Below, one piece after another: positions 1 through 63,609 of a stretch of DNA of 64,000 nt (the first letter of the stretch is position 1; each line of letters opens with the position of its first letter). Both the position numbers and the translations under genes were made by a program. The notes beneath the pieces were generated by a model. The model saw only the letters and a program-made list of their open reading frames with translations. It ran no database searches and had not been told where the DNA came from. This DNA comes from a virus, in the IMG/VR virus record IMGVR_UViG_3300042922_000600, positions 1 through 64,000 of that record, one strand, 5' to 3'.

Positions 1-1290
1 TAAAAAGTACGCCAGCCGGTAAAGCAGGTAAAATGAGCAGGTACCAGGCTTTTTAGTACATATTTAATTATTATAGTATTTTAGCATGTAGCAATAACGA
101 ACATGCATTAAACGGCAATTTATGGCACTTGTGGCTGGAAAATACATGTTTGGCACTAAGGTATAAACATACTAACATACCCCGGAACATTTGCTAGGTG
201 CCGTTTTAGGCACTGTAGCCTGTGACTACTGCAATTGCTTTATTGTAGCCATTTTATAAAGTATTAAAATCCCGGGCCGGGTATCAAATAGGCAGGCAGG
301 CTAATTATAATATACACTATTGCGGAAAAGCATAAACAAGCTATATATTTTCCCATATAATAGCTGGCACATATTATGGGCTACTTTAGGCACTTGACAG
401 CCTTTTGCCTTTGACGCTCGTTATCCTGCCTATAATGCAAATAATGGGAAAACTGTATAAAGCTGGCTGTTAAGCTGTGGGGCTATTAAGTACGGAAAAA
501 CGGCGGCCGGGTATCAAATAGGGCAGGTAACAATTATTGTATATATAAATATTCCATAACTACTAACATAAAAGCATACGATATATAAACATACAAAACA
601 TTTGACAGCACTTTAAACACTTTGACACTGACTTTAATGTACAACTGTACATAATTGGGATTATTTAGTACATGCTGGCTGTAGGCTATTTTAGGCACTT
701 ATATTATCAAGCCTTTAATGCACTCCAAACACTGGGATGTAGGCTAATATTTTAGTGCTATTTAGTTTGACAATATTGTATAACAATGTGGGGTAAAATG
801 TGAGAGATTACTTTTAGGGTATGTACACGCTGACAAACGGTGCACAGGCGCCTTTATACTGTTGTGACGCGATACTTGGAAAACGACTGTGTTGCCTGCT
901 GATATCAATTGTCTTTGCCTTAAATCCGATTTTAAGCTCCCTCCGCCCTTAATTCCGCCAAGTACTCCAATTGCCCACGTGTAGCCAGCTCGTAAACGGG
1001 CCACTGCCACACGTTCCCACACTTGCCCGCACTTTTATACCTGCAAATAAAAACAGCCACACCGGTGCCAAAAGGACAAATAAGGTGCCAAGCTATTTTT
1101 AGTTAGTTGTCCATGCTATTACTATATATATAGGGAAAACGCATAAAGCACTAAAAACAGCTTTGACACTTTTTATTACCTTTGACGCTCATTTATTTTA
1201 GGGGTGCAATTGTATTAAGCCTCCTTTTTCTGCCCTTATATGCCCTTTTACGAGCTCGATATTTAGCTTAAAATACCCATTTTACGCATT
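1..1290. repeat. Non-coding region with degenerate long repeats
   Basis: Exact 18-bp GGCCGGGTATCAAATAGG at 275 and 505 (230 bp apart); CCTTTGACGCTC at 408 and 1179; TTTAGGCACT at 205, 385, 690; no RBS-supported ORF. Confidence 0.7.
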
Positions 1291-1293
1291 ATT

Positions 1294-1735
1294 TTATCCA
1301 CAGTTTATGCCAGTTATCCACAGCTTGCATAGTCAAAGTTATACACAGCTTATCAACATATTTATCCACAGGCGCCTACTTATCCACAGCTAGTCAAGTT
1401 ATCCACAGTATCCACACCCTTGGCACTTATCCACAATTATTGACACTTATCCACAAGCCAAACACTTATCCACAATTTATTGCACTTATCCACAGGGGCA
1501 ACACTTATCCACACTTTGAGCAAGTTATACACAGGCTGTCAAGTTATCCACTGTTTTATGGGGTTATACACACCCCGATTAGTTGTCCACAATTTGGCAA
1601 GTTTATCCACAATAAAATTGTGTCAAGTTGTCCACATTTTTATCCACACCCTGACTAAAATTATCCACAAAGTTGTCCACAATACGAGAATAGTTATCCA
1701 CAACCCCTGCCAAGTTGTCCACACCCTGTTGATAA
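1294..1735 (+). repeat. Array of 25 DnaA boxes (24 forward, 1 reverse)
   Basis: 14 perfect TTATCCACA, 3 TTATACACA, 4 TTGTCCACA and 3 other 1-mismatch boxes on +, one reverse TTATCAACA at 1727-1735; alternating 19/20-bp spacing from 1408 to 1603. Confidence 0.95.
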
Positions 1736-1831
1736 GTGGGAAAGTGACCCGGCCAGAGCGTAAGTCACACCCCCACTGTCTGCTGGCATAACATGCTCCT
1801 TGATATCAATTTGAGTGAATTTTCTGTGATT

Positions 1832-1890
1832 CTACCTGTCAAGCTACTGTATTACCTGTCAAACTACTGTATTGTCTGCCAAGCCCTGCC
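1832..1890. repeat. 20-bp tandem repeat (2 copies plus 1 degenerate)
   Basis: TACCTGTCAA(G/A)CTACTGTAT at 1833 and 1853, degenerate TGTCTGCCAAGCCCTG at 1873. Confidence 0.75.
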
Positions 1891-2306
1891 CGTTAAAGTA
1901 TAAATTTACCCAATTTCTGGCAATTATTTTCATTTTATAAATTTCTGGCTGGCTGGCCTGGTAAAATTTTTGCCATTTCTGGCTAGTTTGTACTGTCTGG
2001 CACTAAAATGCTGTCTGGTACTGATATAAAAGTCTAAAGTTGCCCCCACCCCATTACCGCACCATATAAAAGTAAATCCGTAATATAAAGTTTGACGTAA
2101 GTACTGGAATGCCAAATTTACAGCATAAACTGTTGGACGTATCCACACAATCTTAACTAAGGTTAAATTAAGGGAAGTATCCACAATATTTTAGATTAAT
2201 CCACTTAAATCACGCTTTTTAGAGTGAAAATACCCTCACACATCAGTTGGCTTCGCCAAAACTTAATAAACATAACTACCACGCTGTTTTAGTGTATACT
2301 GTAGCC

Positions 2307-2357
2307 CCTTAATTCTGCCTTTAGGGCATAAAAAATAGTAGGGTAATACATTTATAC
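2307..2357 (-). promoter_or_regulatory. Bipartite dispersed motif GTATAAATGTATTACCC...GGCAGAATTAAGG (copy on - strand)
   Basis: Same two elements with the same 38-bp offset at 25516 and 60996. Confidence 0.6.
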
Positions 2358-2395
2358 CCTCGTAAAATTGCGTGCAAAACTCCTGTTATTATTTG

Positions 2396-2425
2396 TTTAC
2401 AGTTGGCGCTGAGTGGTTTTATACT
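2396..2425 (+). promoter_or_regulatory. Promoter TTTACA-N18-TATACT heading the early operon
   Basis: Identical architecture repeated at 8296, 46677, 49660, 57363. Confidence 0.75.
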
Positions 2426-2503
2426 GTAGTAAGTTTAAGTACTTAGGCGCCCGGTTGGGGGCAGTTTTACTAAACTATACTAGGAAATTTGGAGGAAAGT
2501 TGT

Positions 2504-49972: not shown

Positions 49973-50527
49973 ATGAAGTTAGATGGCATTGAGTTATATG
50001 GTACTGAATTATCTCACTACATACTTAGAAAAATATCCAAATTGGAACAAGAGATGATATATGACAGGACAAAAAAGTATATAAAAATAGATATACACAT
50101 AGTGGACTTTTGTAGTCCCATGCACTTAAATTTTGGCAAAAGAGAGTTACCAGAGCCAGACAACTACAAGTCCTTTTTAGAGTGTGAGGAGTTCACTAGG
50201 GGTAATTTGTTGCACCTTCCCATGGAACTGGCGATGAAACTTAGTTCAGAGCAATTGAAGTTGTACTGCTACTTGATGGGAATTGCCCATTACTTTGACT
50301 TTTATGAACTTGATTGGCTAAAGGTGTGTGATAACTATATGGGCAACTGGAGGGACTTCTTTAGTATGGTTAAGGAGTTACAGGGCATGACATTATCCCA
50401 CGCATATTTTGATTACCCAGTACTAATAACTGAATTATCCAATACACAACTTAGTATAATAATTGACGCAAAGGATAAGGAGGAGGCATATGAACTACTT
50501 CAAAAATACCGCAGAATTGTCGCTTAA
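49973..50527 (+). CDS. hypothetical protein
   Basis: AGGAGG RBS. Confidence 0.65.
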   Translation: MKLDGIELYGTELSHYILRKISKLEQEMIYDRTKKYIKIDIHIVDFCSPMHLNFGKRELPEPDNYKSFLECEEFTRGNLLHLPMELAMKLSSEQLKLYCYLMGIAHYFDFYELDWLKVCDNYMGNWRDFFSMVKELQGMTLSHAYFDYPVLITELSNTQLSIIIDAKDKEEAYELLQKYRRIVA

Positions 50528-52103
50528 AGCAAGTGTCAAGGGGTATTGGATAAACCATAATTTTATGGGAAGATGTGATGGAGTTACAGTTATACCCAAT
50601 AGTCTATTGACGGACCAGGCACTTAAATTAGATGAAAGGCTTGTTATAGCTTATTTGATATCCTATAATTTTAAAAATTCTGGAGTTGGCTACAAGGGTT
50701 TTGTTTTCCCCAGGGTTGAGACTATAGCAAATGATTTGGGTATATCTAGAAGACAGGTTTTTGATAAGATATCTGGAATTGAGGAAAAGGGGTACATTTA
50801 CAGAATTTCAAACAGGAGCACTATTGACTACTATGACAGCATAGAATACATAAATAAATTCTTTGATTTGCATATAAATGAGGCTACTTTGTACTTCCTT
50901 GACCTATGGAAATGTTTGTCTAAAGAAGAAATTATGCGTTACAACGGCGTAGACAGTGAGATGGATTATGAAGAGATGCTAAAAGAAAGAAATGAATTTA
51001 TTGAGTATTTTGATAGCTTACGTGGTATTGAGGATAAGGTAGAGCTGGATGAATATTTAGGAAATAAGGAAGTTACGAGAAATTGCACACCCCCGTGTGC
51101 GGAAACTCGCACACCACCGTATGCGGAAACTCGCACACAGAAACATACAAATATAAAAAATACAAATATAAAAAATAATAATGCGTTGCATTTTCAGTCT
51201 AAATCATTTTTTACTCACCTTCTAAATACAGATATCAAAAAAGAGGACTTTGATAAACCTTTATCCTATAAGGAAGCCAAAAGTTTAAAAGAGCAGAAAA
51301 AGAAAAAAGAACAGCAGGACAAGAAGGATAAAACCTCACAGGAGTTTTTAGATAAACTGGCTAAAAGAGAATTTAAGAATTTCAATCTGGATGAGTTATG
51401 TTTATATTATGAACATCGATTAAAGGAAATTTATGGCACCGCATGTAAGGTAAGCGAGAGGAGTTTTAGAACCTTCAAACTACTGTATGAGCAGAATGGT
51501 TCCTATGGTTTGACAATGGAACAGCTGGCAAGGGTGGTTGATGTATTTTTAGAGACTTATCGTGAAGGTAAGATAAAGGGATTGGACTTAGAAAGCTATC
51601 CCAATCCAGTATACGCTCATTTGCTATTAAATAATAAGGGTAGCATTTTAAAACAGATAATAAACTTGTCCGAGTATTCAGGAGTTCCTACTGTAACAGG
51701 GTCAGGCAGTGTTGTATACAAAGAAGATAGTGACTATAGAGATAAGCTCCCTGAGTTGGTGGAGTTGTGGAAACATGAGAAACCTAAGTGGCTAAAGAAG
51801 TATGGGCTCATTGATGGGAAAGAAGATAGAAACTATATGAAGCGTATCAAATGGGTTCCAAATGACTACTTTGAGGATGACGATATACCGAGTTTTGGTA
51901 GGTACATAAGTAGGTGGTTTGTTAATGGATATCTTACAGATGAAGTTAAGGATAAAATATCTTCACAGGACTTTATGTATTTAGAGGAATATGTAGAGAA
52001 TGTTATGATACCTGCAAATGAGGAATATGATGAGATACAAAAGGCTATACATGAGAAAGTGTATGGTATTGGGACAGATATAAGGATAGGAGGCTTGGTA
52101 TAA
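50463..52103 (+). CDS. replication initiator (winged HTH, lambda O/DnaD-like organisation)
   Basis: IPNSLL.D..L, FPRVETIANDLGISRRQV..I..IEEKGYI; internal iterons; upstream of DnaC-like loader; likely start 50490. Confidence 0.8.
   Translation: MTQRIRRRHMNYFKNTAELSLKASVKGYWINHNFMGRCDGVTVIPNSLLTDQALKLDERLVIAYLISYNFKNSGVGYKGFVFPRVETIANDLGISRRQVFDKISGIEEKGYIYRISNRSTIDYYDSIEYINKFFDLHINEATLYFLDLWKCLSKEEIMRYNGVDSEMDYEEMLKERNEFIEYFDSLRGIEDKVELDEYLGNKEVTRNCTPPCAETRTPPYAETRTQKHTNIKNTNIKNNNALHFQSKSFFTHLLNTDIKKEDFDKPLSYKEAKSLKEQKKKKEQQDKKDKTSQEFLDKLAKREFKNFNLDELCLYYEHRLKEIYGTACKVSERSFRTFKLLYEQNGSYGLTMEQLARVVDVFLETYREGKIKGLDLESYPNPVYAHLLLNNKGSILKQIINLSEYSGVPTVTGSGSVVYKEDSDYRDKLPELVELWKHEKPKWLKKYGLIDGKEDRNYMKRIKWVPNDYFEDDDIPSFGRYISRWFVNGYLTDEVKDKISSQDFMYLEEYVENVMIPANEEYDEIQKAIHEKVYGIGTDIRIGGLV
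51069..51182. repeat. Putative phage origin: 24-bp iterons plus AT-rich tract inside initiator gene
   Basis: CCGT(G/A)TGCGGAAACTCGCACAC at 51093 and 51117, degenerate copy at 51069; ATACAAATATAAAAA twice at 51145 and 51160. Confidence 0.75.
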
Positions 52104-52822
52104 TGAAGTTTACGGGTTTTGATGAGCAGGATTTTGTATTTGATAAGGATAAATGTACTGTGTCCAGAACGTGCAGAAGAGGGCAGTGTAATGATGGCTG
52201 TGCTGTTTACTATAAAACTGAGTACATTTATGGAATAAATAATGTCCCTAAAAAATACAGGGACTGGGTCCCAGAGGATTTATCCAAAATAGTCAAAGAG
52301 GATGTTGACCTTGGTGTGGAGCACATAAAGAGATTGACGTCTGACGCTAACTATACGAAGGGTATATACTTATATGGAAATGTAGGTTCAGGCAAAACTT
52401 CACTTGGATTGGTGTTGTTAAATGACTTCCTTAGAAGGATGATTAACGAGTATAGGATAATGGAGTACGTTGAAAATGAATTTACGCCAGTGCTGTTTGT
52501 TCCATTTAGCCAGTATGCAGAGACTTATAAAGCTAGGTTCTCAAACAAGTCTGACTTCCTGGAATTAATAAATAATAACATTTACAAGAGCCACCTCGTA
52601 ATGATTGATGATATTGGGTTTGACGGTCAGACTAAAACTACACTGGACTTACTTTTTAACATCATAGACTCTGCATTGGCTAATGATAGAGGACTTATAT
52701 TAACTGGTAACTTACCACCACAGAAATTGCAAGGTGTGTTGGGCAGTAGGTTGCACAGCAGAATAGTAAATGGTTGTGAGTGCTATGAAGTTAGGTCCTC
52801 CGACTTACGTTCGAGCTTTTAG
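52103..52822 (+). CDS. DnaC/IstB-like AAA+ helicase loader
   Basis: GNVGSGKT Walker A, MIDDIG Walker B, TGN, RLHSRI. Confidence 0.88.
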   Translation: MKFTGFDEQDFVFDKDKCTVSRTCRRGQCNDGCAVYYKTEYIYGINNVPKKYRDWVPEDLSKIVKEDVDLGVEHIKRLTSDANYTKGIYLYGNVGSGKTSLGLVLLNDFLRRMINEYRIMEYVENEFTPVLFVPFSQYAETYKARFSNKSDFLELINNNIYKSHLVMIDDIGFDGQTKTTLDLLFNIIDSALANDRGLILTGNLPPQKLQGVLGSRLHSRIVNGCECYEVRSSDLRSSF

Positions 52823-52953
52823 TGGGCTATAAATTAGGGGTGTAACTTTATACCTGTAACACGAAATGGTATTACAGGGGCAGAATTAAAGGCGTACCAT
52901 TAGCATTAAACACAATGCAAAGGTACAGTATATTTTGCACAATACAAAAGTAG

Positions 52954-54366
52954 TTGAGTTCGTTTATACTATATTGTAGGGAGGTCATTGACTTGGTAGA
53001 GTATCAAATAATTAATCACATTTTGGAGCAGAAGGATATTGGTATAATACAGAGAAACAAAATAAATGAAACTTATTTTGAATTCTGTAAAGAAGAGTTT
53101 GAATTTATACATACACATTGGAGAAAGGTAGGACAGATTCCTGACATACATACATTCCTTGCAAAATACCCTGATTTTGAGGTGTTTAAGGTAGGGGAGT
53201 CGGAGGAATACTTAGTAAACTCACTACGGGAGCAATATGTCTATAATAAAATAGTTCCCATACTTAAAGAAGGTGACGAAAAGCTAAGAGAGGATAGTTT
53301 TGACGCCGTTGACTTCCTAAGGGCACAACTGAGGGAAATTGCAGAAACGCTAGACTTTAGACATGTAGGCCACAATTTAGCGAAAGACACTGATGTTAGA
53401 AAAGATGACTATTTGAAAAGAATGGAAATGAAAGGTTTGACAGGGATACCCACTGGTCTTGAGTGGTTGGATGACCTGACTAACGGTTGGCAGGAAGAAG
53501 ACTTTGTAATGCTAGGTGGTTACCTTGGCGAAGGTAAATCATGGCTGCTATTATTTCTTTTATGGGCGGCATGGGGTAGGTCAAAAAAGAAGGTACTTTT
53601 AATAAGTAGAGAGATGGGCAAAGTCCTAGTGGGTTTCCGTTTTGATACATGGAATGGAAATTTCAGTAACCTTGGGCTTATGAAAGGTAATACGGAATTA
53701 GGAAAAGTTGATAAAAGTGTTGGGGGTAGAATAGTACCAATTGATTTATCAAAGGACGACTATATTAAGTATCTGGAAGAGCTTAAGGATGAAGACAATC
53801 CAGACTTTATGGTCTACACAAATGAGGATAATGCTCAGTGTACTTTTGAGGACATTGAGAACTTAATAGATATTATTAAACCAGATATTGTTGGCATTGA
53901 CCAACTTTCCTTAATAGGCACAGTTAAGAAATTTGGAACAATAAGGGAGAGGTATATATTCCTTACTAGAAACTTTTACAGACTATCCAGCAAAAAGAGA
54001 ATACCTATATTAGTTACGGGTCAGATAGGAAGAGACTGGGCAAAGGGTAGGGACAAGAACAAAAAGAATGGCAGTGACCAGATAGATGCACCAGAGACTC
54101 ACCAGTTCATGGAGAGTAACAGTGCGGGTGAAGATGCCACTCGTGTTGTTACATTTGCAAGAAAGGGAAACATAGTTATGATAAATGTTCCGAAGAATAG
54201 ATATGGCATTGGCGGAAAGCAAGAATTTGTGTGGGACATAGATAGGGGCTTTATAAATCTTTTCGACAGACCAGAAGAGGATGAGGATGAGCAACCACAG
54301 GCAAAGAGAGGCTCCAAGGATAAGAAAGAGAACAAGGTAATACAGACAAGCGAGTATATATTTTAG
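52954..54366 (+). CDS. dnaB: replicative DnaB-like helicase
   Basis: GIPTGL..LD..TNGW, GYLGEGKS, SREM, IDQLSLI, EDA, KNRYG; likely start ~52993. Confidence 0.88.
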   Translation: MSSFILYCREVIDLVEYQIINHILEQKDIGIIQRNKINETYFEFCKEEFEFIHTHWRKVGQIPDIHTFLAKYPDFEVFKVGESEEYLVNSLREQYVYNKIVPILKEGDEKLREDSFDAVDFLRAQLREIAETLDFRHVGHNLAKDTDVRKDDYLKRMEMKGLTGIPTGLEWLDDLTNGWQEEDFVMLGGYLGEGKSWLLLFLLWAAWGRSKKKVLLISREMGKVLVGFRFDTWNGNFSNLGLMKGNTELGKVDKSVGGRIVPIDLSKDDYIKYLEELKDEDNPDFMVYTNEDNAQCTFEDIENLIDIIKPDIVGIDQLSLIGTVKKFGTIRERYIFLTRNFYRLSSKKRIPILVTGQIGRDWAKGRDKNKKNGSDQIDAPETHQFMESNSAGEDATRVVTFARKGNIVMINVPKNRYGIGGKQEFVWDIDRGFINLFDRPEEDEDEQPQAKRGSKDKKENKVIQTSEYIF

Positions 54367-54381
54367 TGGAGGTGATAACGT

Positions 54382-54885
54382 ATGAAAACTTTCCTTAATG
54401 AGTCCGAACGTAAGGATGTAGTAATGCTGTACTGTTTAATTGGTACAATGCAGGAACAATTTTTAAAGGATTGGGATGAGAGAGGTAACTTGACAGCGGA
54501 AGAGAGAAAGTATATCAAAACCTCAATAACACTTGCGTTGAAAGTAACAGACTCAATAATGAATAGGATAGATGGAAATTTAAGGCAACGCTTAATTAGG
54601 GATATGAAAGCAACCGACCTATTCTGCTTACCCAAGTCAGAGGCAAAATTAAAGAAGGACAGATTTGAGAAAGAAGTACTGTCAAATGAACTTATTAAAG
54701 TGTCAAGGGATGCAATTGACGAACTGGCACAAAGGGCTATGGATTGGTGTAATCCATGTAACGTGGTAAAATGTGATGAATGCATACTAAGAGAAATATT
54801 TAGGCAACTGGATTTGGAGCCATATGATTGTGAGGCTACTGAATGTGAGTATAGAATAAAGAAAGGGGGTGGAGAAATTGAATAG
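54382..54885 (+). CDS. hypothetical protein with Cys cluster
   Basis: FLNESER N-term; CNPC..C..C..C..C. Confidence 0.65.
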   Translation: MKTFLNESERKDVVMLYCLIGTMQEQFLKDWDERGNLTAEERKYIKTSITLALKVTDSIMNRIDGNLRQRLIRDMKATDLFCLPKSEAKLKKDRFEKEVLSNELIKVSRDAIDELAQRAMDWCNPCNVVKCDECILREIFRQLDLEPYDCEATECEYRIKKGGGEIE

Positions 54886-55096
54886 ACAGGAAAGAAGAAG
54901 AGCCGGAAAACTGGCGAATAACTCTAAGGAGTTTTCCGAGTTTGTAGTTCAAAATAGATTGCAGGTATTACAGGCATCACTATTAGCGAGTCTGGACACA
55001 CTAAAAGAAGATTTTAATTTTGATGAAAAGCAATTAAACGACTTTGCAGTTAAGCATAATGAACGTCTTAAAGCTACATTGGGTGGTGGTAAATAA
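54869..55096 (+). CDS. hypothetical protein
   Basis: LNRQERRR N-terminus; coupled. Confidence 0.6.
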   Translation: MEKLNRQERRRAGKLANNSKEFSEFVVQNRLQVLQASLLASLDTLKEDFNFDEKQLNDFAVKHNERLKATLGGGK

Positions 55097-56142
55097 TGTT
55101 GGTGATATGGGATACACCACTCATTGTTGAATTAGAAGTAGTACTTCATTTTTTGAAACAGGAAATGGAAGAAATGCATGGAAGGGACTATTTTGGCAGG
55201 TCCGTTGAAAGTGGAAGCAACTTGATGGTTAAGTGCCCATTTCATAAGGATGGGCAGGAAAGAAAGCCAAGCATGGGCATCCGTGTGGATGACGGTCAGT
55301 TTAACTGCTTTACTTGTGGGGAGCATGGAGACCTTCCAATGTTTGTTGCAAAGTGTCTGGATTTGGGAGTTAAGAGGGACACCACTGGCGGTATAGTGGA
55401 ACCCCCCAAACCCGAATTGGGGTATAAATGGCTACTTAAGAAGTTTAATTTAGCTGTGCAGGGTGAGAGACCAGGTCTTGGGCTTGGACAGTCTAGGACG
55501 AGTAAAAGATTTGATAGGTTTGTCCCAGAAAGCGACTTAGAGCAATACTATGAATATGTGCATCCTTACATGGAAGAGGTTAGATTTATCCCACAAAAAA
55601 TGCAGGACTATCTAGAGATAGGATATGACAAGGCAACCAACAGTGTTATATTTCTTATGAAGGACTTAAAGGGAAATGTTTTCTTTGTTAAAAAACGTCC
55701 AATCACTTCCTATAATGATGTAAGGTATACTAACGTAAAGGATATACCAAAGAAGCATTTGATGTTCGGAGCCTACTACATTTATAGGGACTATGTTGCT
55801 ACACCAAAGAAATGGATGTCGGACATGATACATAAAAATGGAATTACTCTTGTTGAGGGTGAAATAGATGTTGCAAGTGGATGGACACTTAGAATGCCCA
55901 CTGTCGGGATAGGTGGGAGGATATTTTTCAAGGAACAGGCTAAAGTACTTGCGGCAATGGGAGTAAAAAATATAAACCTGGGCCTGGACAATGATGAGGA
56001 AGGTCAAAAAGAAACAGTGAGAATAGTAGACAACTACTCAAGCACATTTAGATTGAGCCTAATTAAGTATCCTGACTGGGCTAAAGACATGAATGATGTT
56101 GTTAAGAATGGAAAAGGTATTGAGGTATTAAAATTTCTATAG
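55096..56142 (+). CDS. dnaG: DNA primase (CHC2 zinc finger + TOPRIM)
   Basis: CPFH..E.KPS..CFTCG; VEGEID; DNDEEG; KDMND. Confidence 0.9.
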   Translation: MLVIWDTPLIVELEVVLHFLKQEMEEMHGRDYFGRSVESGSNLMVKCPFHKDGQERKPSMGIRVDDGQFNCFTCGEHGDLPMFVAKCLDLGVKRDTTGGIVEPPKPELGYKWLLKKFNLAVQGERPGLGLGQSRTSKRFDRFVPESDLEQYYEYVHPYMEEVRFIPQKMQDYLEIGYDKATNSVIFLMKDLKGNVFFVKKRPITSYNDVRYTNVKDIPKKHLMFGAYYIYRDYVATPKKWMSDMIHKNGITLVEGEIDVASGWTLRMPTVGIGGRIFFKEQAKVLAAMGVKNINLGLDNDEEGQKETVRIVDNYSSTFRLSLIKYPDWAKDMNDVVKNGKGIEVLKFL

Positions 56143-56155
56143 GAAGGTACTTTTC

Positions 56156-56350
56156 ATGAAAAATAAGTGGGATGTGGAAATGAGTTACATACTTGGCATA
56201 AGTGTTGTGGCTGAGGGAGATACTAAGGAAGAAGCTGTAACTAACGCAAAAGAACTGGTAAAAGAGTATGTATCTGTTAATGACGGGTTTACAGTGGACT
56301 GTGGTGACGTGATGTTTGAGCAAGTTAATTTTATACAGGAGCATAGATAG
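56156..56350 (+). CDS. hypothetical protein
   Basis: V.A.GDTKEEA motif. Confidence 0.6.
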   Translation: MKNKWDVEMSYILGISVVAEGDTKEEAVTNAKELVKEYVSVNDGFTVDCGDVMFEQVNFIQEHR

Positions 56351-56737
56351 TGTGGATTGGATGAATTAACTCCAATAGTAACAAAGGGTGTCACTTGTGC
56401 AATTAACAATAAATACTTATTATTACAAGTAATTTTAAATTTATACATTATTTTTAAAATTGTTACAAAAATTAGTAAAAAATTGTTGTAATATGTAAAA
56501 AAATGTTGTATAATAATATTGTAAAGTTAATACATAATGAAATTACATAATTAATAAGGCACCTTTTGCATATAGTACTCGGATTGGAACTATTAGTTGG
56601 CCCATTGGATAATTGGCTTGGTGCATATTTTGACAGCGAAATTATTGAATGGGCTATACTTATTGGCAAAAATTCAACATTCACACAATTGGTGCGAGTT
56701 TTTGAAACAGACTAAACTAAACTAGGAGGATTTAAAA

Positions 56738-57355
56738 ATGAACAATGTTCAAGAAATGGCGTTAATGGTTAAAAATGGTGAAATAGGTGAGGAAGAGTTC
56801 ATAATTGGATGCAAGAAAATAATAGAGGATGCTTCCTACAAATGGTACCAAAAGGTAGGGCTAATGGATGGGAGAGAAATTCAAGAGAAAAGACAGCTAT
56901 GTAGTATTTGGTGTTGGGAGGCGTTAAGAAATTACAATCCGGAGAAGGGTAAATTTACGACGCTGTATTATGCTCATACACAGAATATGATAAAGAACCT
57001 ATGTAGAAGAAGTACAAATGATAACGAGAAGGCAAATAATTACACAAACTGTTTCAGCTATGAATTCAGTATATGTGGTGAGAGCGAAAATTCCTCAGAA
57101 GAAGGAAGTGCATTTATAAAGCATCAGTGCAATGAAGAGGATGGATTTGAAAGAGTTGAGATTGAAATGATGCTAAAGCACAACGGTTTTGATGATATAA
57201 CTATGGGCATTGTTAAGTATAAAATGGAAAGCCCCGAAATGCCGGATGCAGAAATTGCCAGACTATTAGGCTATAGTAGAGCATATATTAGCCTACTATG
57301 GAGAAAGGTTAAGCCTTTTCTAGCCAGCCAGCTATGCACAGCGGATAATTTTTAA
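56738..57355 (+). CDS. phage sigma70-family RNA polymerase sigma factor
   Basis: Region 2 WEALRNYNPEKGKFTTLYY..QN.IKN..R; region 4 HTH AEIARLLGYSRAYIS. Confidence 0.78.
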   Translation: MNNVQEMALMVKNGEIGEEEFIIGCKKIIEDASYKWYQKVGLMDGREIQEKRQLCSIWCWEALRNYNPEKGKFTTLYYAHTQNMIKNLCRRSTNDNEKANNYTNCFSYEFSICGESENSSEEGSAFIKHQCNEEDGFERVEIEMMLKHNGFDDITMGIVKYKMESPEMPDAEIARLLGYSRAYISLLWRKVKPFLASQLCTADNF

Positions 57356-57362
57356 AAACCAG

Positions 57363-57392
57363 TTTACATAAATGAACGAATGGCTTTATACT
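57363..57392 (+). promoter_or_regulatory. Promoter TTTACA-N18-TATACT
   Basis: Recurring architecture; -10 lies in an inverted repeat with CAGTATAGAGCC. Confidence 0.7.
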
Positions 57393-57473
57393 GCATTGTA
57401 AAATAAAAGTACAGTATAGAGCCTATTTTTATTTTACGGAACGTAGGTAATTTGTTAGGGAGGGAATTGGTCT

Positions 57474-57635
57474 ATGAAAAGACTTATCACAGTACTAAAA
57501 AAGACAAGACATATTTTATGGGGTAACTTTGTAATCATCACTGAAAAGGATGGCAAAGTTAGTGCCGATGGGATAATGCCTGCAAATAGACTTAAATTAG
57601 TCATTAATCAATTTAACCAACAACTTAATTCCTAA
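57474..57635 (+). CDS. 53-aa hypothetical protein (not in ORF track)
   Basis: GGGAGGG RBS; MKRLITVLKKTRHILWG... Confidence 0.5.
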   Translation: MKRLITVLKKTRHILWGNFVIITEKDGKVSADGIMPANRLKLVINQFNQQLNS

Positions 57636-57698
57636 CCAAAACACTTTAAACACTTTCCAAACTAAAAAAACTTAAAACAAGAAAGGTGGAAATTATTT

Positions 57699-58364
57699 AT
57701 GGCAGGTTTTAAAGGTATTGATGCAATTAAAGGGGCAATTGACAATTTTGCCACGGGTTCAAATGTCGGATTTTTTGGGTTAAAGGATGATGGGGACAGA
57801 GCAGATGTTCAATTCCTACATAAAGATGCAGATGACCTAAACGTACTACTTACGCACCAAATAGAGGTGGACGGAAAGAAGAGATATGTGGAGTGCCTGA
57901 AGATGTACGAGAAACCTTGTGCAATGTGTGAGCAAGGTAGCAAGACATCGCTTAGACTATTCTTATATCTATTAAGCTGGAGACCGGACGAAAAAGGAAG
58001 AGTTCCAAAAGAACCAAAGGTAGAGTTATGGGATAGAGGTAAAGACGTAATAAATCGTATCCTTAACTTAATAGGCAAGAAAAAGGACTTAAGAAAGCAT
58101 GTGTATGAGGTTGTTAGAAATGGAAAGGCTGGAGATACTGGAACTTCCTATGACATTGACCCATATGATGAAAGTGAATTATTAGTACCAATTGAGAAAT
58201 TACCAGAGCGCCCAGATATATATGAATTTGTGCTGAAAAAGAATTATGATGAAATGGTTGCACTGCTAAAAAGTGGTGCAGGAGCGGCAAGCTCAACTCC
58301 AACAAAAAGACAGGGCGCAACTAATAGGTTTACGCCAATTGATGATGACGACATACCATTTTAA
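57699..58364 (+). CDS. ssb: single-stranded DNA-binding protein (gp32-like)
   Basis: FF.LKDDGD, H..C..C..C zinc site, RNGKAGDTGTSY, acidic DDDDIPF tail. Confidence 0.82.
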   Translation: MAGFKGIDAIKGAIDNFATGSNVGFFGLKDDGDRADVQFLHKDADDLNVLLTHQIEVDGKKRYVECLKMYEKPCAMCEQGSKTSLRLFLYLLSWRPDEKGRVPKEPKVELWDRGKDVINRILNLIGKKKDLRKHVYEVVRNGKAGDTGTSYDIDPYDESELLVPIEKLPERPDIYEFVLKKNYDEMVALLKSGAGAASSTPTKRQGATNRFTPIDDDDIPF

Positions 58365-58471
58365 CTAGAGCTAGATAAGGGGGGTGGAATTTAATATTCC
58401 ATCCTTTTTTATGTTACAATACAAATTGAAACCTTTTATACTGCATTGTATACTAATTGGAGGTGGAAGAT

Positions 58472-58561
58472 ATGAAATGTGCATACAAGATAGCCTACGG
58501 TTGTGGTAGCTGTGGCGGAAGAAGAGACTGCCCATACGCGAACAGAAAGAAAGGATGGTAG
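58472..58561 (+). CDS. 29-aa Cys-rich peptide upstream of polymerase (not in ORF track)
   Basis: GGAGGTGG RBS after promoter GTTACA-N18-TATACT (58413); MKCAYKIAYGCGSCGGRRDCPY... Confidence 0.45.
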   Translation: MKCAYKIAYGCGSCGGRRDCPYANRKKGW

Positions 58562-58564
58562 AGA

Positions 58565-60985
58565 TTGAAACGTAATTTACTTTTTGGGGTTGACAATAAT
58601 TTAAAGAGGGATGTAATAAATCCAAAAGAAATAAATAAAATTATATCCTCCATGACTGAGAAAAGGACAGTTAAGAAGTCCGGAGCCGGAAAAAGTATTG
58701 GTAAGATAAAACAGACGGTTTCCATACTTGTGGATGAGTTTAAGAAAAAGCACCCAAACTTACTTTCAGAGTGGCCGAGTAATTACATATTAGTGGACAC
58801 AGACGAGAAGTTGGATAGACTACTTCGCTCCATTGAGGAGTGCAGAAGATTTTCGTATGACACAGAAACTATGGGCCTAAAGATATGGCATGGCGATAAC
58901 ATAGTAGGGATGTCTTTTTATACGCCCTGTGATGGTAATGCCTGGTATATACCAATACATCATCTTGACTGTGTAGAACCTGTGGAGGGTAAGCAATTAC
59001 CTGTGGAGTTTATAAAAGAAAATATGGCACCTGTTATGCGGAAGAAAAGAGAAGAATCCCTTGCGTACAGTATGCGAACTTTAAACAGTATTGACGACAT
59101 AGACATGTCCGAGGAATACTGTGGTGTTGTAACATTCAATGGTAAGTTTGACAGCCATGTGGTTTGGATAAATTTAGGCATTGAAATGCCGGATATTGCG
59201 TTTGAGGGATATTTAGCATCAAGGGTATTAAATGAAAATGAACCAGTAAATAAATTGAAGCCCTTGTGCAATAAATGGCTCAAACAGTACCAACAAAATC
59301 CGTTAGACAAATTTGATGAGATATTTGAAAAGACGCCATGTGCCTACTTTCCAATATGGATGGTTGGTTATTATGCATGCAAAGACGCCATACTTCATTG
59401 GGAATGGATGGAATTTGCGGAGAGCCACATAAAGAAGAGACCCGGCCTTGCTGAGTCCTACTATGTAATACAGTTGCAGGTTATGCCATCAGTAATTGCG
59501 GCAGAGCGTAGAGGTATGTTGCTGGATGTAGACAGAGTAAACGCAAACAAGGAAGAATTTGAGGGATACAAGGTTGCTATTGAGAAAACAATAAAAACTC
59601 AATTACAGGAATTGATGGATAAATTCCTGGACGATAACCCTCATGTGCAGGTTGTTAATGTCCCGCCCAGCACAAAGAATGGTAAAGCCAAGGTATTTGA
59701 CAGGAACACTTTAAGGACATCTTTTATAGCCGGATTGAACATAAACAGCCCTCCACAGTTGGGTGACTTATTTTTCTCAATATGGGGTTGGCCAACTACT
59801 AAGAAGGACGGCAAGGCTACAAATGAGAAGGTTATGCAAAGGCTCGCTAAACAATTTTCAGTATGTAAAAGCATCTTAGCATACAGAACAGTTAAGAAAA
59901 TGATAGGAACTTACTGTGATGGCTTATTAGAATCAATTAGCCCCGTTGACGGTAGAGTTCATACTTCCTTTAACCCTTATAAGGCAGTTACCAACAGGTT
60001 CTCAAGTTCCGACCCCAATCTACAGAATATCCCTTCTAAGTCAAAGAAATTATTAATAGAGGGGCAGGAAGTTAAGGTCGATTTTGGTAAGAAGATAAGA
60101 CGTTGCTTTATTGCAGAGGAAGGAAATGTCCTATGCTCCACTGACTACTCACAGATAGAGCCACGTATTCTAGCAGTGTTATCCGGAGATGAGACGATGC
60201 TTGACGCATATAGGAATGCCAAGGACGTGTACGTGCAACAGGCAGTATTGTTCTTTCCCGGACACCCGGAACAGGAGTATTTAGACAATGACGATACAGG
60301 GTATAAAAGCCCATGGAGAGGTAAGGTTAAGGCAATAGTCCTTGGACTTAACTATGGTATGACAGAAGTTGGACTTGCTGAGGGACTGGACTGTACTGAG
60401 ACAGAGGCTAAACGAGAGATTGAAAGATACTTTGACACATTTCCTGCAATTAAAAAGTTCACTCAAAGTGTGCTGGACTTTGCATATGAAAATGGATATG
60501 TGGAGATGTTGTACCACACAAAAAGAAGACTTCCTGATTTGCATGATAGCCGTGCATGGATTCGCTCAGACGCAGAGAGACAGTGCGTAAACTCTATAAT
60601 GCAGGGCTCTAGTGCTGAGATAACTAAAAGAGCTATGGCATTTATATATGCAAACCAGCGTCTAAGAGAATTGTGCGTAACTCTTATATCCACTGTTCAT
60701 GATGAGGTTATTACTTCCATACCAAAAGATAATTTGATGGAGGCTATACCAATTATTAAGCAGTGTATGATTGATGCATGTAGTAGACTTACTGAAAGAG
60801 GCGGTATAGTTATAAAAGTAGATGCTGAAGTAAGTGAGCAGTGGTATGGACCAGTATATCATTGGGAAGGGCATGAGGAAGTCGGAGAGGACAATGAAAA
60901 ACTAATTCTTGAGGAACTGGACGATGATTTAGGTGAAGAAGAGACAGAAGTGCAAGATGAATACGAAGAGAGTGTATTTGCATAA
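58565..60985 (+). CDS. polA: DNA polymerase family A with 3'-5' exonuclease
   Basis: Exo YDTET, FNGKFD, YACKD; RFSSSDPNLQNIP; motif A DYSQIEPR; motif B KAIVLGLNYG; motif C VHDE. Confidence 0.93.
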   Translation: MKRNLLFGVDNNLKRDVINPKEINKIISSMTEKRTVKKSGAGKSIGKIKQTVSILVDEFKKKHPNLLSEWPSNYILVDTDEKLDRLLRSIEECRRFSYDTETMGLKIWHGDNIVGMSFYTPCDGNAWYIPIHHLDCVEPVEGKQLPVEFIKENMAPVMRKKREESLAYSMRTLNSIDDIDMSEEYCGVVTFNGKFDSHVVWINLGIEMPDIAFEGYLASRVLNENEPVNKLKPLCNKWLKQYQQNPLDKFDEIFEKTPCAYFPIWMVGYYACKDAILHWEWMEFAESHIKKRPGLAESYYVIQLQVMPSVIAAERRGMLLDVDRVNANKEEFEGYKVAIEKTIKTQLQELMDKFLDDNPHVQVVNVPPSTKNGKAKVFDRNTLRTSFIAGLNINSPPQLGDLFFSIWGWPTTKKDGKATNEKVMQRLAKQFSVCKSILAYRTVKKMIGTYCDGLLESISPVDGRVHTSFNPYKAVTNRFSSSDPNLQNIPSKSKKLLIEGQEVKVDFGKKIRRCFIAEEGNVLCSTDYSQIEPRILAVLSGDETMLDAYRNAKDVYVQQAVLFFPGHPEQEYLDNDDTGYKSPWRGKVKAIVLGLNYGMTEVGLAEGLDCTETEAKREIERYFDTFPAIKKFTQSVLDFAYENGYVEMLYHTKRRLPDLHDSRAWIRSDAERQCVNSIMQGSSAEITKRAMAFIYANQRLRELCVTLISTVHDEVITSIPKDNLMEAIPIIKQCMIDACSRLTERGGIVIKVDAEVSEQWYGPVYHWEGHEEVGEDNEKLILEELDDDLGEEETEVQDEYEESVFA

Positions 60986-60995
60986 AAATATTATA

Positions 60996-61046
60996 GTATA
61001 AATGTACTGCACCCCCATAAAAAGGGCTATAATGGTAGAATTAAGG
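60996..61046 (+). promoter_or_regulatory. Bipartite dispersed motif copy
   Basis: GTATAAATGTACTGC (60996) and GGTAGAATTAAGG (61034), offset 38. Confidence 0.6.
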
Positions 61047-61098
61047 TACTTATTTTGGGGGTGTACTGCACAGTATAAAATAAAAATGGAGGTAAGTT

Positions 61099-61383
61099 AT
61101 GGAAATAGCCGTAAAGCAGATAATTGAAGAGCATGACAAGTTGGAAATGGACATTAAAGAGATTGAAAGAGGTTTGGTATCATTACGAGGTCAGGATTGG
61201 CAAAATGGTGCAACAAAGGATGAAAGGCTCCCTGTTAAAATCCTACTAGCCACATTAAATGATATGTATGTAGCAAGAGAGAAATTGTTAAACCACACAG
61301 TTTGTGATTTTTCATTTGAGGGCCCGTTTAAGAAATTTGAACCAGAGGAGGGAAAGTCTAATGAGTTTATACCAGAAATATAG
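61099..61383 (+). CDS. hypothetical protein
   Basis: GGAGG RBS. Confidence 0.65.
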   Translation: MEIAVKQIIEEHDKLEMDIKEIERGLVSLRGQDWQNGATKDERLPVKILLATLNDMYVAREKLLNHTVCDFSFEGPFKKFEPEEGKSNEFIPEI

Positions 61384-62386
61384 ACCTCAAGTATTTGAGG
61401 ACGTTTGTGGACAGGACCATGTTAAAATTATACTGCAAAATCAAATTAAGAATGATGAGATAAGCCACTCCTATTTATTCACAGGAACACGTGGAATAGG
61501 TAAAACAACTACGGCTAGAATCTTAGCTAGAATGGTAAATGAGGACGGAGTTCTTACACGTCAGGAACTAGACATGAATATAATTGAGATAGATGGGGCA
61601 TCTAATAATGGTGTGGAGAATATTAGAAATATAAGGCAGGAAGTTAATCACAGACCAAGCAAGGGTAAGTTTAAGATTTACATAATAGACGAGGTTCATA
61701 TGTTGAGTACAGGCGCATTTAATGCCCTGCTGAAGACTTTGGAAGAGCCACCTGCACACATAATATTCATGTTGTGTACGACAGACCCACAGAAGATTCC
61801 AGCGACTATACTCTCCAGATGCCAACGCTTTGATTTACAGCGTTTTGATGTTAAGGACCTATTTGGACGTGTGAAGTACATTGCCGGACAAGAGGGTATC
61901 GAAATGGAAGATACTGCTCTTATGTATATTGCTAAAATGGGTAAGGGTAGTATGAGGGATGCTATTAGTATATTTGACCAGGTTAGGAACTATAAGGAAG
62001 GTATAACATACTCTGACATACTTAAAATATTGGGTAGTGTTGGAATGGATACTATTTTGGGTGTTATGAATAATATAGACAATCCACCAGAGTTACTTAA
62101 GCAGTTAAAGTCGATATATTATAGTGGTGTGGACATGAGACAATTTATAAAGGACTTATTTAACTACTGCAACGACTGTCTGATTTACAGCAAACTGGGT
62201 GAGGAGTCACTTGAGTATATCAATTCAAGTCCCGAGAACTTAGCAGACATTAAAAGGCACTCAACTATAGTGGACTTCAAGTTCCTAGAGGCTTTGCAGG
62301 AATTGGATAATGAATTAAGATATAGCGATAATGAGTATCTTTTGATACAAAATGAATTACTCAAATTAGGCTTGGGGAGAAATTAA
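61361..62386 (+). CDS. dnaX: DNA polymerase III gamma/tau-like clamp loader ATPase
   Basis: LYQKYRPQ.FEDV.GQ, GTRGIGKTT, EIDGASN, IIDEVHML, NALLKTLEEPP, SRC, GSMRDA. Confidence 0.92.
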   Translation: MSLYQKYRPQVFEDVCGQDHVKIILQNQIKNDEISHSYLFTGTRGIGKTTTARILARMVNEDGVLTRQELDMNIIEIDGASNNGVENIRNIRQEVNHRPSKGKFKIYIIDEVHMLSTGAFNALLKTLEEPPAHIIFMLCTTDPQKIPATILSRCQRFDLQRFDVKDLFGRVKYIAGQEGIEMEDTALMYIAKMGKGSMRDAISIFDQVRNYKEGITYSDILKILGSVGMDTILGVMNNIDNPPELLKQLKSIYYSGVDMRQFIKDLFNYCNDCLIYSKLGEESLEYINSSPENLADIKRHSTIVDFKFLEALQELDNELRYSDNEYLLIQNELLKLGLGRN

Positions 62387-62388
62387 AC

Positions 62389-62604
62389 ATGTTATTTATG
62401 GCTTGGATTGCTACAATTGGTAGCATAATTGGGAATGTAGGTGTCATATACAAAAGATTATGGGGCATGTGGATTTGGATGATAGCCGGGCTAATTTGGG
62501 TACTTTACAGTATTATAAGAAGAGACTATGCTCAATTGGCTATGTATATATTCTATACCGGATTAAATGTGTGGGGTATAATACAGTGGAGTAAAAAACA
62601 GTAA
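62389..62604 (+). CDS. half-size PnuC-like membrane protein
   Basis: 3 TM; W.AT..S..G...K..W..W....W...Y...Y...N.WG..QW.K. Confidence 0.6.
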   Translation: MLFMAWIATIGSIIGNVGVIYKRLWGMWIWMIAGLIWVLYSIIRRDYAQLAMYIFYTGLNVWGIIQWSKKQ

Positions 62605-62624
62605 TCTATGGAGGGATACGAAGA

Positions 62625-62807
62625 ATGAAATCCATATTTAAGAAATTAGTAAATGCTCTGGGTTGGATGTTTAGCTTGCCAACAGGCGTGAGGATACCAT
62701 ACAGCTACATGAGGGGACACAGTTCCGCTCCTATGTATTACTTTAATAAGAAAGGTGGAACAGAAATTGATAGGTCAGTCGGAAATGAAACAACTGGTTC
62801 TAAATAA
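62625..62807 (+). CDS. hypothetical protein
   Basis: GGAGG RBS. Confidence 0.45.
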   Translation: MKSIFKKLVNALGWMFSLPTGVRIPYSYMRGHSSAPMYYFNKKGGTEIDRSVGNETTGSK

Positions 62808-63609
62808 TGATAAACCCTGTATTGTTGTGGGTAAGAAAGGCATGGGAAAGTTAACCCTTGCCTTGGAATGCTATCCATCTTCCACTGTAATTGGGGATGG
62901 TGTGGAAAGAATAAAGGTTGACCAGATTAGACAAATACTAGAGCAGGTTGTTAATATGAGCTCTCAGGAGTACATAATTAGGAATGCAGATAATTTAACA
63001 GTTCAAAGTCAAAATGCACTGCTTAAAGTATTGGAGGAGTGCCCGGAACACGTAAGATTTTTGATATTGTGTGAGGACCCAAGTAAGGTGCTTACCACCA
63101 TTAAGAGTAGGTGTAACTTATTTAAAATGAAGTTATACACGGATGACGAGATTGAAGAGTACGTAAAATTGAATTACCCAAACATTAAAAAGTACCGAAT
63201 GCTACAGAACTACTGCAAGGGTGTTCTTGGAACTGTGGATAGGATAGCAGGTAAGCTGTTTGTTGATATTAGAAATGTTGCCACTAAGATTATATTTAAC
63301 TTACCAAAGACGTCGGTTGGGAACATATTTAACATTATTGAGCATGTAAAGCCAATCGAAGAGAACTTGAGCTTGCTACTGGACACCATGATTGTTATAT
63401 ATACAGATTTGCACTTTGTAAAAATAGGTGCTGAGGAGTTTATAACGGACATTGCTCTTTTAGACAAGTATAAGGAGTTCGATATAACACCTGAGCAGGC
63501 GTACAAAAATGTTAAAATACTGGACTCCTATAAGAGAAAGATGGGTGTTCCTGTTAACTTCACAATGTTTGTTGACACATTGATGCTTAGGTTGAGGGGA
63601 GTGATTTAA
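62755..63609 (+). CDS. holB: clamp loader delta-prime subunit-like
   Basis: GKKGMGK, IKVDQIR, AD.LT..SQNALLKVLEE, LTTIKSRC. Confidence 0.85.
   Translation: MEQKLIGQSEMKQLVLNNDKPCIVVGKKGMGKLTLALECYPSSTVIGDGVERIKVDQIRQILEQVVNMSSQEYIIRNADNLTVQSQNALLKVLEECPEHVRFLILCEDPSKVLTTIKSRCNLFKMKLYTDDEIEEYVKLNYPNIKKYRMLQNYCKGVLGTVDRIAGKLFVDIRNVATKIIFNLPKTSVGNIFNIIEHVKPIEENLSLLLDTMIVIYTDLHFVKIGAEEFITDIALLDKYKEFDITPEQAYKNVKILDSYKRKMGVPVNFTMFVDTLMLRLRGVI

Follow-up and report, generated by a model that had tools for sequence, protein, structure and literature searches.

Close to the left end of a virulent-looking phage genome, 442 bp of DNA carry 25 DnaA boxes, the largest such array in any phage among the matches we list. 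Every box, and the phasing that sets one box from the next, is on the evidence of sequence comparison under purifying selection. The boxes are very probably bound by the DnaA of the host. As to what the array is for, the reading we put ahead of the others, tentatively, is that it would serve as a high-capacity sink for host DnaA. The window that we analysed is the whole stretch of 64,000 nucleotides, bases 1-64000 of a source record of 75,238 bp that is called linear and has a CheckV completeness of 98%. The array and its three blocks lie in it as follows.

1294..1735, + strand: whole array, 24 co-oriented boxes and one inverted box
1294..1416, + strand: left block, 8 boxes, irregular steps of 20, 25, 11, 12, 18, 19 and 9
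1408..1611, + strand: central block, 11 boxes, strictly alternating 19/20 bp, making five 39-bp two-box units
1603..1735, + strand: right block, 8 boxes, steps of 25, 12, 21, 12, 21, 21 and 12

A box is here a match to TTATCCACA with at most one mismatch. Fourteen of the boxes are perfect, 24 of the 25 lie on the + strand, and the single inverted one is at 1727. They start at 1294, 1314, 1339, 1350, 1362, 1380, 1399 and 1408 in the left part, at 1427, 1447, 1466, 1486, 1505, 1525, 1544, 1564, 1583 and 1603 in the middle, and at 1628, 1640, 1661, 1673, 1694, 1715 and 1727 (inverted) at the right end. The first-pass annotation of this DNA had listed the same 25 boxes, with the same perfect, co-oriented and inverted members and a strict 19/20 alternation from 1408 to 1603; all of its start coordinates, and the alternation, hold. 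Shuffles of the 64-kb window put the chance expectation for boxes with no more than one mismatch at 24 +/- 4.5 per window, or about 0.2 per 442 bp. As many as 17 of the window's 22 matches to TTATNCACA fall within the array, and only two perfect boxes turn up in the remaining 62 kb. Where array boxes vary they do so mainly at position 5 (the N of TTATNCACA) or position 3, while the boxes at 1350 and 1727 (TTATCAACA) have the core C at position 6 broken. A consensus of the TTATCCACA type is the one used by the DnaA proteins of B. subtilis and E. coli (PMC2533591).

The central block consists of ten alternating 19/20 steps, with starts from 1408 to 1603, and its gaps alternate as well, a GC-rich one of 10 bp with an AT-rich one of 11 bp. 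Within either class the gap sequences are a mere 36-41% alike. Hidden low-affinity boxes in the gaps were ruled out, the best match averaging 4.6 of 9 positions vs 4.46 in control DNA. Where the left and central blocks meet, the box at 1408 directly abuts the one at 1399, and because there is zero gap between them the two may not be occupied simultaneously. Pairs of boxes 3 bp apart occur four times (1350/1362, 1628/1640, 1661/1673 and 1715/1727), the last of them a head-to-head pair in which the right block terminates.

We sought relatives in IMG/VR by way of the ligase, an alignment of Gat-QueC and scans for the end sequences. Just one close relative was found, IMGVR_UViG_3300042922_000707, which is 76,232 bp long, collinear, and 79-92% identical in aligned segments; more distant Gat-QueC phages are without the array. 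The relative has 22 boxes in the same place and with the same 19/20 phasing. In the pairwise alignment of the two phages, 7 of 217 box positions have changed (3%) vs 48 of 215 spacer positions (22%; Fisher p = 7e-10). All 14 perfect boxes are also perfect in the relative, which at the spacer rate would happen by chance with a probability of about 1e-14. Each of the seven changes that did occur within boxes either returns the box to the consensus or falls at position 5 (A to G) or position 3 (G or A). Indels in the array and the adjacent DNA are of 10-11 bp only, equal to one box unit or one helical turn; in the relative the left block has gained 11 bp at one point and lost 10 bp at another, box 1408 going with the loss. 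Best conserved of all is the right block, 92-98% identical to the relative, spacers included. The difference between box and spacer divergence, the retention of perfect boxes, the 10-11-bp indels and the dissimilar gaps together show that boxes and phasing are maintained, and support the selection proposed in the first-pass annotation, not recent slippage.

Assemblers can be misled by repeats, and strict 19-bp tandem arrays of the same 9-mer exist in other metagenome contigs. On these grounds one might take the array for an artefact of assembly, for a chimera with a host oriC, or for a neutral tandem repeat that expanded recently. We give these next to no credence. The second phage, 8-17% diverged in sequence, has the same array with both flanks and the same phasing, which tells against an artefact, and a neutral repeat is hard to square with spacers that are almost randomised around intact boxes. 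A four-box phased pattern was present in just 2 of 185,579 bacterial and archaeal species genomes, namely an archaeal MAG (where it is a strict 19-bp satellite) and Corynebacterium falsenii, and neither is a plausible host origin. Capture of a host oriC, a prospect that the first-pass annotation had itself raised, is rejected: both junctions are common to the independently assembled, diverged relative, and the pattern is near-absent from genomes. A coding repeat protein fares no better, as the relative does not preserve the open frames and the substitutions have no third-position bias (16/14/8).

The array stands in a leader that runs from the end of the contig to the early-type genes, among the following features.

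1..2488, no strand assigned: gene-free, repeat-rich leader, from the contig's left end to the first early-type gene
1176..1293, + strand: conserved left flank, 90-96% identical to the relative
1247-1274, + strand: promoter-like site TTTACG-16-TAAAAT, 9/12 matches, a consensus match only
1736..1825, no strand assigned: conserved right flank, rather GC-rich (42-62% A+T), 94-96% identical to the relative
2139..2185, + strand: two extra one-mismatch boxes GTATCCACA, at 2139 and 2177, within a 38-bp direct repeat

Between positions 1 and 2488 there is no credible ORF, no Rfam match and no tRNA. The leader is built instead of several families of direct and inverted repeats, and it is 83% identical overall to that of the relative, with islands at 94-100%. 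The promoter-like site in the left flank would fire into the array. The right flank contains TGATATCAATT, a second copy of which is at 900-910. Beyond it, the AT-rich DNA at 1826-1950, with a 20-mer tandem at 1833-1872, has been replaced in the relative (24-54% identical). The region of the two GTATCCACA boxes is 96-100% identical to the relative, and those boxes are about 200 bp upstream of the best early-promoter-like site, which lies at 2396-2425, downstream of the array.

The array is 1.3 kb from the left end of the contig. Contig and relative, which are independent assemblies, begin and end at the same bases, and the first ~150 and last ~125 bases are 100% identical between the two phages despite divergence elsewhere. 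At the right end is the gene for a Gat-QueC fusion, which breaks off at position 124 of the 210-position QueC profile. Full-length Gat-QueC homologues have about 500 aa; no part of the contig encodes the C-terminal ~120 aa that the fusion lacks, nor are they recovered by simply joining the ends into a circle. The assembly contains no terminal repeat. Two readings fit: either the contig stops at defined, physical ends of the DNA, next to a gene that is truncated, or it stops at a repeat boundary that hides a missing segment.

All credible genes of the phage are on the + strand. Downstream of the leader come about 12 kb of small genes, mostly without known function, with an ATP-dependent ligase among them; then terminase, portal and structural genes and an M23 endolysin; then the replication module, which starts with an SNF2 helicase and an O-like initiator; and finally a nucleotide and 7-deazaguanine module. 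Replication is represented by these features.

50463..52103, + strand: replication initiator, O-like, with an N-terminal winged helix (Pfam HTH_36; PHROG 270/391 'replication initiation protein')
51080..51185, + strand: candidate phage origin within the initiator gene, with 2.5 24-bp iterons and then a very AT-rich tract
52103..63609, + strand: DnaC-like loader, DnaB-like helicase, primase, family-A polymerase and clamp-loader subunits

The iterons of the phage's own initiator (51080-51138; 24 bp, each with an internal dyad) are inside the initiator gene, 49 kb from the array, and as repeats are distinct from it. Ori-lambda sits inside gene O, and the candidate phage origin shows a like layout. 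The first-pass annotation had credited the phage with an origin and a replisome of its own. The origin now has a lambda-type candidate at 51080-51185. For the replisome, the initiator with iterons, loader, helicase, primase and polymerase all stand, and the SSB falls away, since a bacterial-type SSB was not found. The absence of dnaA and dnaN from the array's neighbourhood, which had also been remarked on, extends to the 75-kb contig: neither a DnaA C-terminal domain (domain IV) nor dnaN was found in it, and the phage would have to borrow the host clamp. Nor does the 75-kb contig, which is not quite complete, hold a recognisable DnaD/DnaB_2-type adaptor, ParB, integrase or resolvase; the last three absences tell against the plasmid-prophage state once offered as an alternative.

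Cultured relatives are distant, the polymerase having about 30% identity to those of Clostridium, Streptococcus and Bacillus phages. BLAST, which is blind to 9-mer arrays, turned up no comparable DNA among cultured phages and plasmids. Among bacteria, the closest FolE homologues belong to Bacillota (50-60% identity), and the ribosome sites are strong GGAGG; together with the distant phage similarity these are weak pointers to a host that is probably a member of the Bacillota. Through its 7-deazaguanine pathway the phage probably modifies guanines of its own DNA, and this could change the G-rich strand of each box so that DnaA binds it less well.

The case for host DnaA as the reader of the array is strong because the motif is the exact DnaA consensus and its variation stays within DnaA's known tolerance. 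A different reader can be imagined. The 9-mer might be recognised by a phage-encoded protein, as a private operator or a centromere-like array, or it might act at the level of RNA after transcription; most early proteins are without known function, the contig lacks part of the genome, and the promoter-like site is directed into the array. We nonetheless hold this to be quite improbable. The motif is DnaA's own consensus, its tolerance of change at positions 5 and 3 is DnaA's as well, no gene for DnaA domain IV, ParB, integrase or resolvase was found, and the two perfect boxes in the other 62 kb do not amount to a dispersed set of operators. An RNA sponge of the CsrA type, on the opposite strand, is rejected, as the tolerated position-5 variants destroy the GGA that it requires.

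Host DnaA could be put to more than one use. Co-oriented DnaA boxes are the hallmark of DnaA-oligomerisation regions, and the array might be a second, DnaA-dependent origin or a replication enhancer, serving for example an early theta phase. The right block shows the canonical 12/21-bp spacing, host-DnaA origins probably account for many of the phage clusters that form contiguous 11-12-bp arrays, and the phage-encoded loader and helicase might be recruited by DnaA. If so, DnaA-trios and an unwinding element would be expected 3' of TTATCCACA, to the right of the array, a polarity that we set from the sequence of E. coli oriC. A search rule for the bacterial unwinding module specifies at least three DnaA-trios (3'-NAN-5', consensus 3'-GAT-5') within 16 bp of a box (PMC8287927). 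The array has no run of DnaA-trios: at most three NTN triplets follow any box, and they run into the next one, while after the last box and beside the inverted box there are no NTN runs. The first-pass annotation was right that no trio run exists, and the vestigial unwinding element that it described turns out to be just three NTN triplets entering the next box. No conserved AT-rich unwinding element is present beside the boxes either; the expected flank, 1736-1825, is GC-rich, and the AT-rich 1826-1950 is not conserved. We rejected an iteron-plus-DnaA-box origin using the 20-mer tandem at 1833-1872, a stretch replaced in the relative. The array, as far as its sequence can tell, is without the defining features of an origin that can be tested for. 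Add to this the lack of a DnaD/DnaB_2-type adaptor, a complete lambda-type candidate origin elsewhere in the genome, and a core spacing of 19/20 bp whose gaps do not favour a contiguous oligomer, and an auxiliary origin becomes improbable.

A sink for host DnaA would work differently. DnaA in either nucleotide state would occupy the consensus boxes singly, in the core at about one protomer every 19.5 bp, and each genome copy would hold up to ~25 DnaA molecules. As phage genomes multiplied, their arrays would drain the pool of free DnaA; no new rounds of initiation would begin on the host chromosome, and DnaA-controlled genes would be shifted, with no phage protein involved. On a small scale, non-origin clusters such as E. 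coli datA and the DnaA-box clusters of B. subtilis already drain the pool in this way. Titration of DnaA by DNA sites is a decades-old idea for the timing of replication, and direct chromosomal tests of it are only recent. In B. subtilis, stable DnaA binding depends on local box density and affinity, and datA in multicopy upsets the cell cycle (PMC2533591); the titration model calls for high-affinity boxes that bind both nucleotide forms (PMC12371093). We favour the sink because the boxes are many, individually conserved and of consensus grade, because the core geometry is non-contiguous and its gaps are without weak boxes, and because no unwinding module accompanies the array in a phage that has its own origin. 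Several points pull the other way. A sink needs no particular position, orientation or phasing, yet the array has kept each of them. Unrelated phages repeatedly have smaller clusters in non-coding hubs and near contig ends, and T5 has one as well. One infecting genome brings 25 sites only, so that any effect must await replication. Then there are the 7-deazaguanine pathway, with its potential to loosen DnaA's hold, and the possibility of a phage protein that reads the same 9-mer in a genome of which part is missing.

Of these points, the conserved orientation and phasing and the recurrence of smaller clusters are those on which a role in cis would draw. In that case DnaA on the array, ahead of the early genes, would serve to anchor, pause, protect or insulate the genome as it comes in; in variants of the idea it would be a barrier to exonucleases or to read-through transcription, or a tether to the host origin domain. 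The precedent is T5. In 25 T5-like phages the injection-stop region, which is untranslated and repeat-rich, lies in the terminal repeat and adjoins the pre-early genes, has eight DnaA boxes, many of them in pairs with 3 bp between; the replication origins of T5 are located elsewhere (10.1101/866236). The author of that work suggests that membrane-bound DnaA might halt the entry of DNA at this region (10.1101/866236). Our array is likewise in a 2.5-kb untranslated, repeat-rich leader just before early-type genes, and only 1.3 kb separate it from a contig end at which both independent assemblies stop on the same base. It has four box pairs 3 bp apart, its orientation and phasing are conserved, and the clusters of other phages also sit in non-coding hubs and are enriched near contig ends. 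We still regard a docking platform in cis as rather unlikely, if worth taking seriously. The T5 model is itself only a proposal, cis roles that are known or proposed use 1-8 boxes vs the 22-25 that selection has kept here one by one, and position 1 is a physical end on only one of the two readings of the contig ends. A simple roadblock on early transcription is unlikely, since the array lies upstream of the best early-promoter-like site (2396-2425).

The sink and a role in cis are compatible, not mutually exclusive. The right block may be an ancestral docking site, and the 39-bp core a later expansion that added capacity. Taken to its fullest extent, the sink becomes a protein-free device for host takeover, in which ~25 sites per copy soak up, and perhaps inactivate, DnaA; we find this version doubtful. 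It would include a distinct 'storage' geometry for DnaA, namely the 19-20-bp spacing that the array shares with other very long metagenome arrays, to be set against the 11-bp oligomerising geometry of origins. With 25 conserved boxes in 440 bp, the array looks like the strongest natural titration cassette yet seen. Were the sink to prove true, this would be the first phage to disable a host master regulator by DNA and not by protein, and the array a ready-made tool with which to titrate DnaA. Were the role in cis to prove true, it would give a tractable handle on the DnaA boxes that head early regions from T5 to uncultured giants.

The likeness to the T5 iss (Davison 2020) bears setting out in full. 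In both cases DnaA boxes lie next to the early genes of a phage that is, or looks, virulent, in a long stretch of repeat-rich DNA that is not translated; the origin and replication genes are elsewhere; the boxes are conserved among relatives; and some pairs are 3 bp apart. The differences are of number and arrangement. T5 has 8 boxes, many of them variant, with pairs that lie within inverted repeats, whereas the array here has 25, mostly perfect and co-oriented, around a 19/20-bp core, and its pairs are not embedded in long inverted repeats like IRC/IRD. The hosts differ also, probably Bacillota here vs Enterobacteria for T5.

E. coli datA and the B. subtilis clusters share with the array dense boxes of consensus grade and the lack of an unwinding element, and they keep DnaA off oriC and so restrain initiation (PMC2533591; PMC12371093). 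Those loci, however, are chromosomal, have ~5-9 boxes and serve the cell's own control, and datA also requires IHF and promotes ATP hydrolysis. The Bacillota are not known to have IHF. The array, carried by a phage, is three to five times their size and would act against the host. A bacterial oriC has co-oriented consensus DnaA boxes in common with the array (PMC8287927). Its boxes are contiguous or helically phased, unlike the 19/20-bp core, and the array lacks the trio run, the conserved AT-rich element and the dnaA/dnaN neighbour. Iteron replicons such as P1 oriR, F, RK2 and pSC101 add a few host DnaA boxes beside their iterons. They too are mobile elements with an initiator of their own and DnaA boxes, but in our phage the iterons are 49 kb away, in the initiator gene, and the boxes number 25.

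Full-text literature searches turned up no report of a phage DnaA sponge. Phage-borne DnaA boxes and non-origin clusters are already known in kind, and the array is not a new category. The phenomenon is in fact less unprecedented than the first-pass annotation implied, for smaller clusters recur in many unrelated phages: at least 120 IMG/VR contigs have three perfect boxes within ~90 bp. Like the array, these clusters of uncultured phages are in non-coding hubs and consist of perfect host-type boxes, usually in co-oriented runs. Several unrelated phages have theirs immediately upstream of the terminase genes, in the non-coding gap between divergent genes, and the clusters listed sit near contig ends more often than the lengths of the contigs would suggest (14 of 119 within 100 bp, 34 of 119 within 500). 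In size they are modest. Across the 154 loci listed, the densest 600 bp contain 3-14 boxes, and the only outliers are the phage under study (25) and its relative (22).

Spacing sets the array apart as well. Same-orientation neighbours in the clusters listed are mostly 11-12 bp (161 pairs), 21-22 bp (65) or 33 bp (18) apart, and the larger phage clusters among them are contiguous 11-12-bp runs; a spacing of 19-20 bp is rare there (16 pairs). The right block obeys this common 11-12/21-22/33 pattern and the central block does not. Whichever use the phage makes of its array, the contrast between 19-20-bp arrays and 11-12/21-22/33-bp clusters amounts to a testable statement on two modes of DnaA-DNA assembly. 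The other very long arrays that we came across, unrelated to the phage under study, all have a 19-bp period: three are metagenome contigs, with 52, 41 and 10 boxes, and one, with 37, is in the archaeal MAG.

Where DnaA boxes cluster in other phages, they tend to keep a regular rhythm. Among the matches listed for 119 IMG/VR phage loci with such clusters (L139–L257), co-oriented perfect neighbour boxes are spaced almost only by 11–12, 21–22 or 33 bp, which are whole helical turns, and the 19–20 bp spacing at the centre of our array is rare between them. Among these same matches the clusters fall within 100–500 bp of a contig end unusually often. Several unrelated small phages (L002, L003, L005, L008, L015, L027 and others of the IMG/VR loci) have 3–8 boxes clustered in a divergent non-coding gap, with the genes for the small and large terminase subunits directly downstream.

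Strict 19-bp tandem arrays do exist in other DNA, with TTATCCACA present in every unit:

L056 1–1020, 52 copies, short JGI metagenome contig
L057 890–1684, 41 copies, short JGI metagenome contig
L058 237–420, 10 copies, short JGI metagenome contig
L042 4864–5796, 37 copies, 778-kb contig from the MAG of a Nitrosopumilaceae archaeon

Archaea are not known to have DnaA. The first of these contigs also holds a second 19-bp array (L056 2102–2430), the unit of which differs.

Closer to home, the gene-free leader around the array is rich in repeats. A dispersed phage motif, GGCAGAATTAAGGG, with a GTATAAATGTATTACCC-like box upstream of it, precedes gene modules on the plus strand and recurs in the leader on the minus strand, one copy each side of the array. 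At three leader places, paired TTGACA/TTGACG hexamers 17–20 bp apart are followed by a TATAAT-like hexamer; these could serve as early promoters or as sites for a protein.

16666, 25554, 46608, 52879 and 61034, plus strand, GGCAGAATTAAGGG motif before gene modules
946–959 and 2306–2375, minus strand, GGCAGAATTAAGGG motif in the leader
394–436, 602–655 and 1163–1210, paired hexamers with TATAAT-like hexamer
405–422 and 1176–1193, leader repeat TT(G/A)CCTTTGACGCTC
900–910 and 1799–1809, palindrome-containing 11-mer TGATATCAATT
1833–1872, tandem 20-mer TACCTGTCAAGCTACTGTAT, 2.6 copies, just right of the conserved array flank
1826–1950, AT-rich stretch with ATTTCTGGC repeats, also just right of that flank

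Both TGATATCAATT copies lie inside blocks more than 90% conserved in a close collinear relative (IMGVR_UViG_3300042922_000707), which has unrelated sequence in place of the TACCTGTCAAGCTACTGTAT tandem and the ATTTCTGGC stretch.

The two phage contigs start and end on the same bases (window 1–150; whole contig 75110–75238, or L038 11110–11238 in the part right of the window), with 100% identity over the first ~150 and last ~125 bases against 79–92% elsewhere. The terminal gene, a Gat-QueC fusion, breaks off near residue 381 of roughly 500, and no coding sequence for the missing C-terminal part occurs anywhere in the contig. Two readings fit the shared ends: defined (cos-like) ends with a truncated gene beside them, or the boundary of a repeat that conceals a missing segment.

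This fusion is encoded with FolE, two radical-SAM enzymes, an SDR and ThyX at contig 67700–75238 (L038 3700–11238), a gene set suggesting that the phage DNA carries a 7-deazaguanine modification; Pfam recognised no DpdA-like transglycosylase among the ORFs tested. DnaX-, delta-prime- and delta-like clamp-loader subunits are encoded at window 61304–63609 and L038 17–490. The phage contig gave no PF00712 (sliding clamp) match and no bacterial-type SSB was found in the phage, which, with loader subunits present, therefore presumably uses the host clamp.
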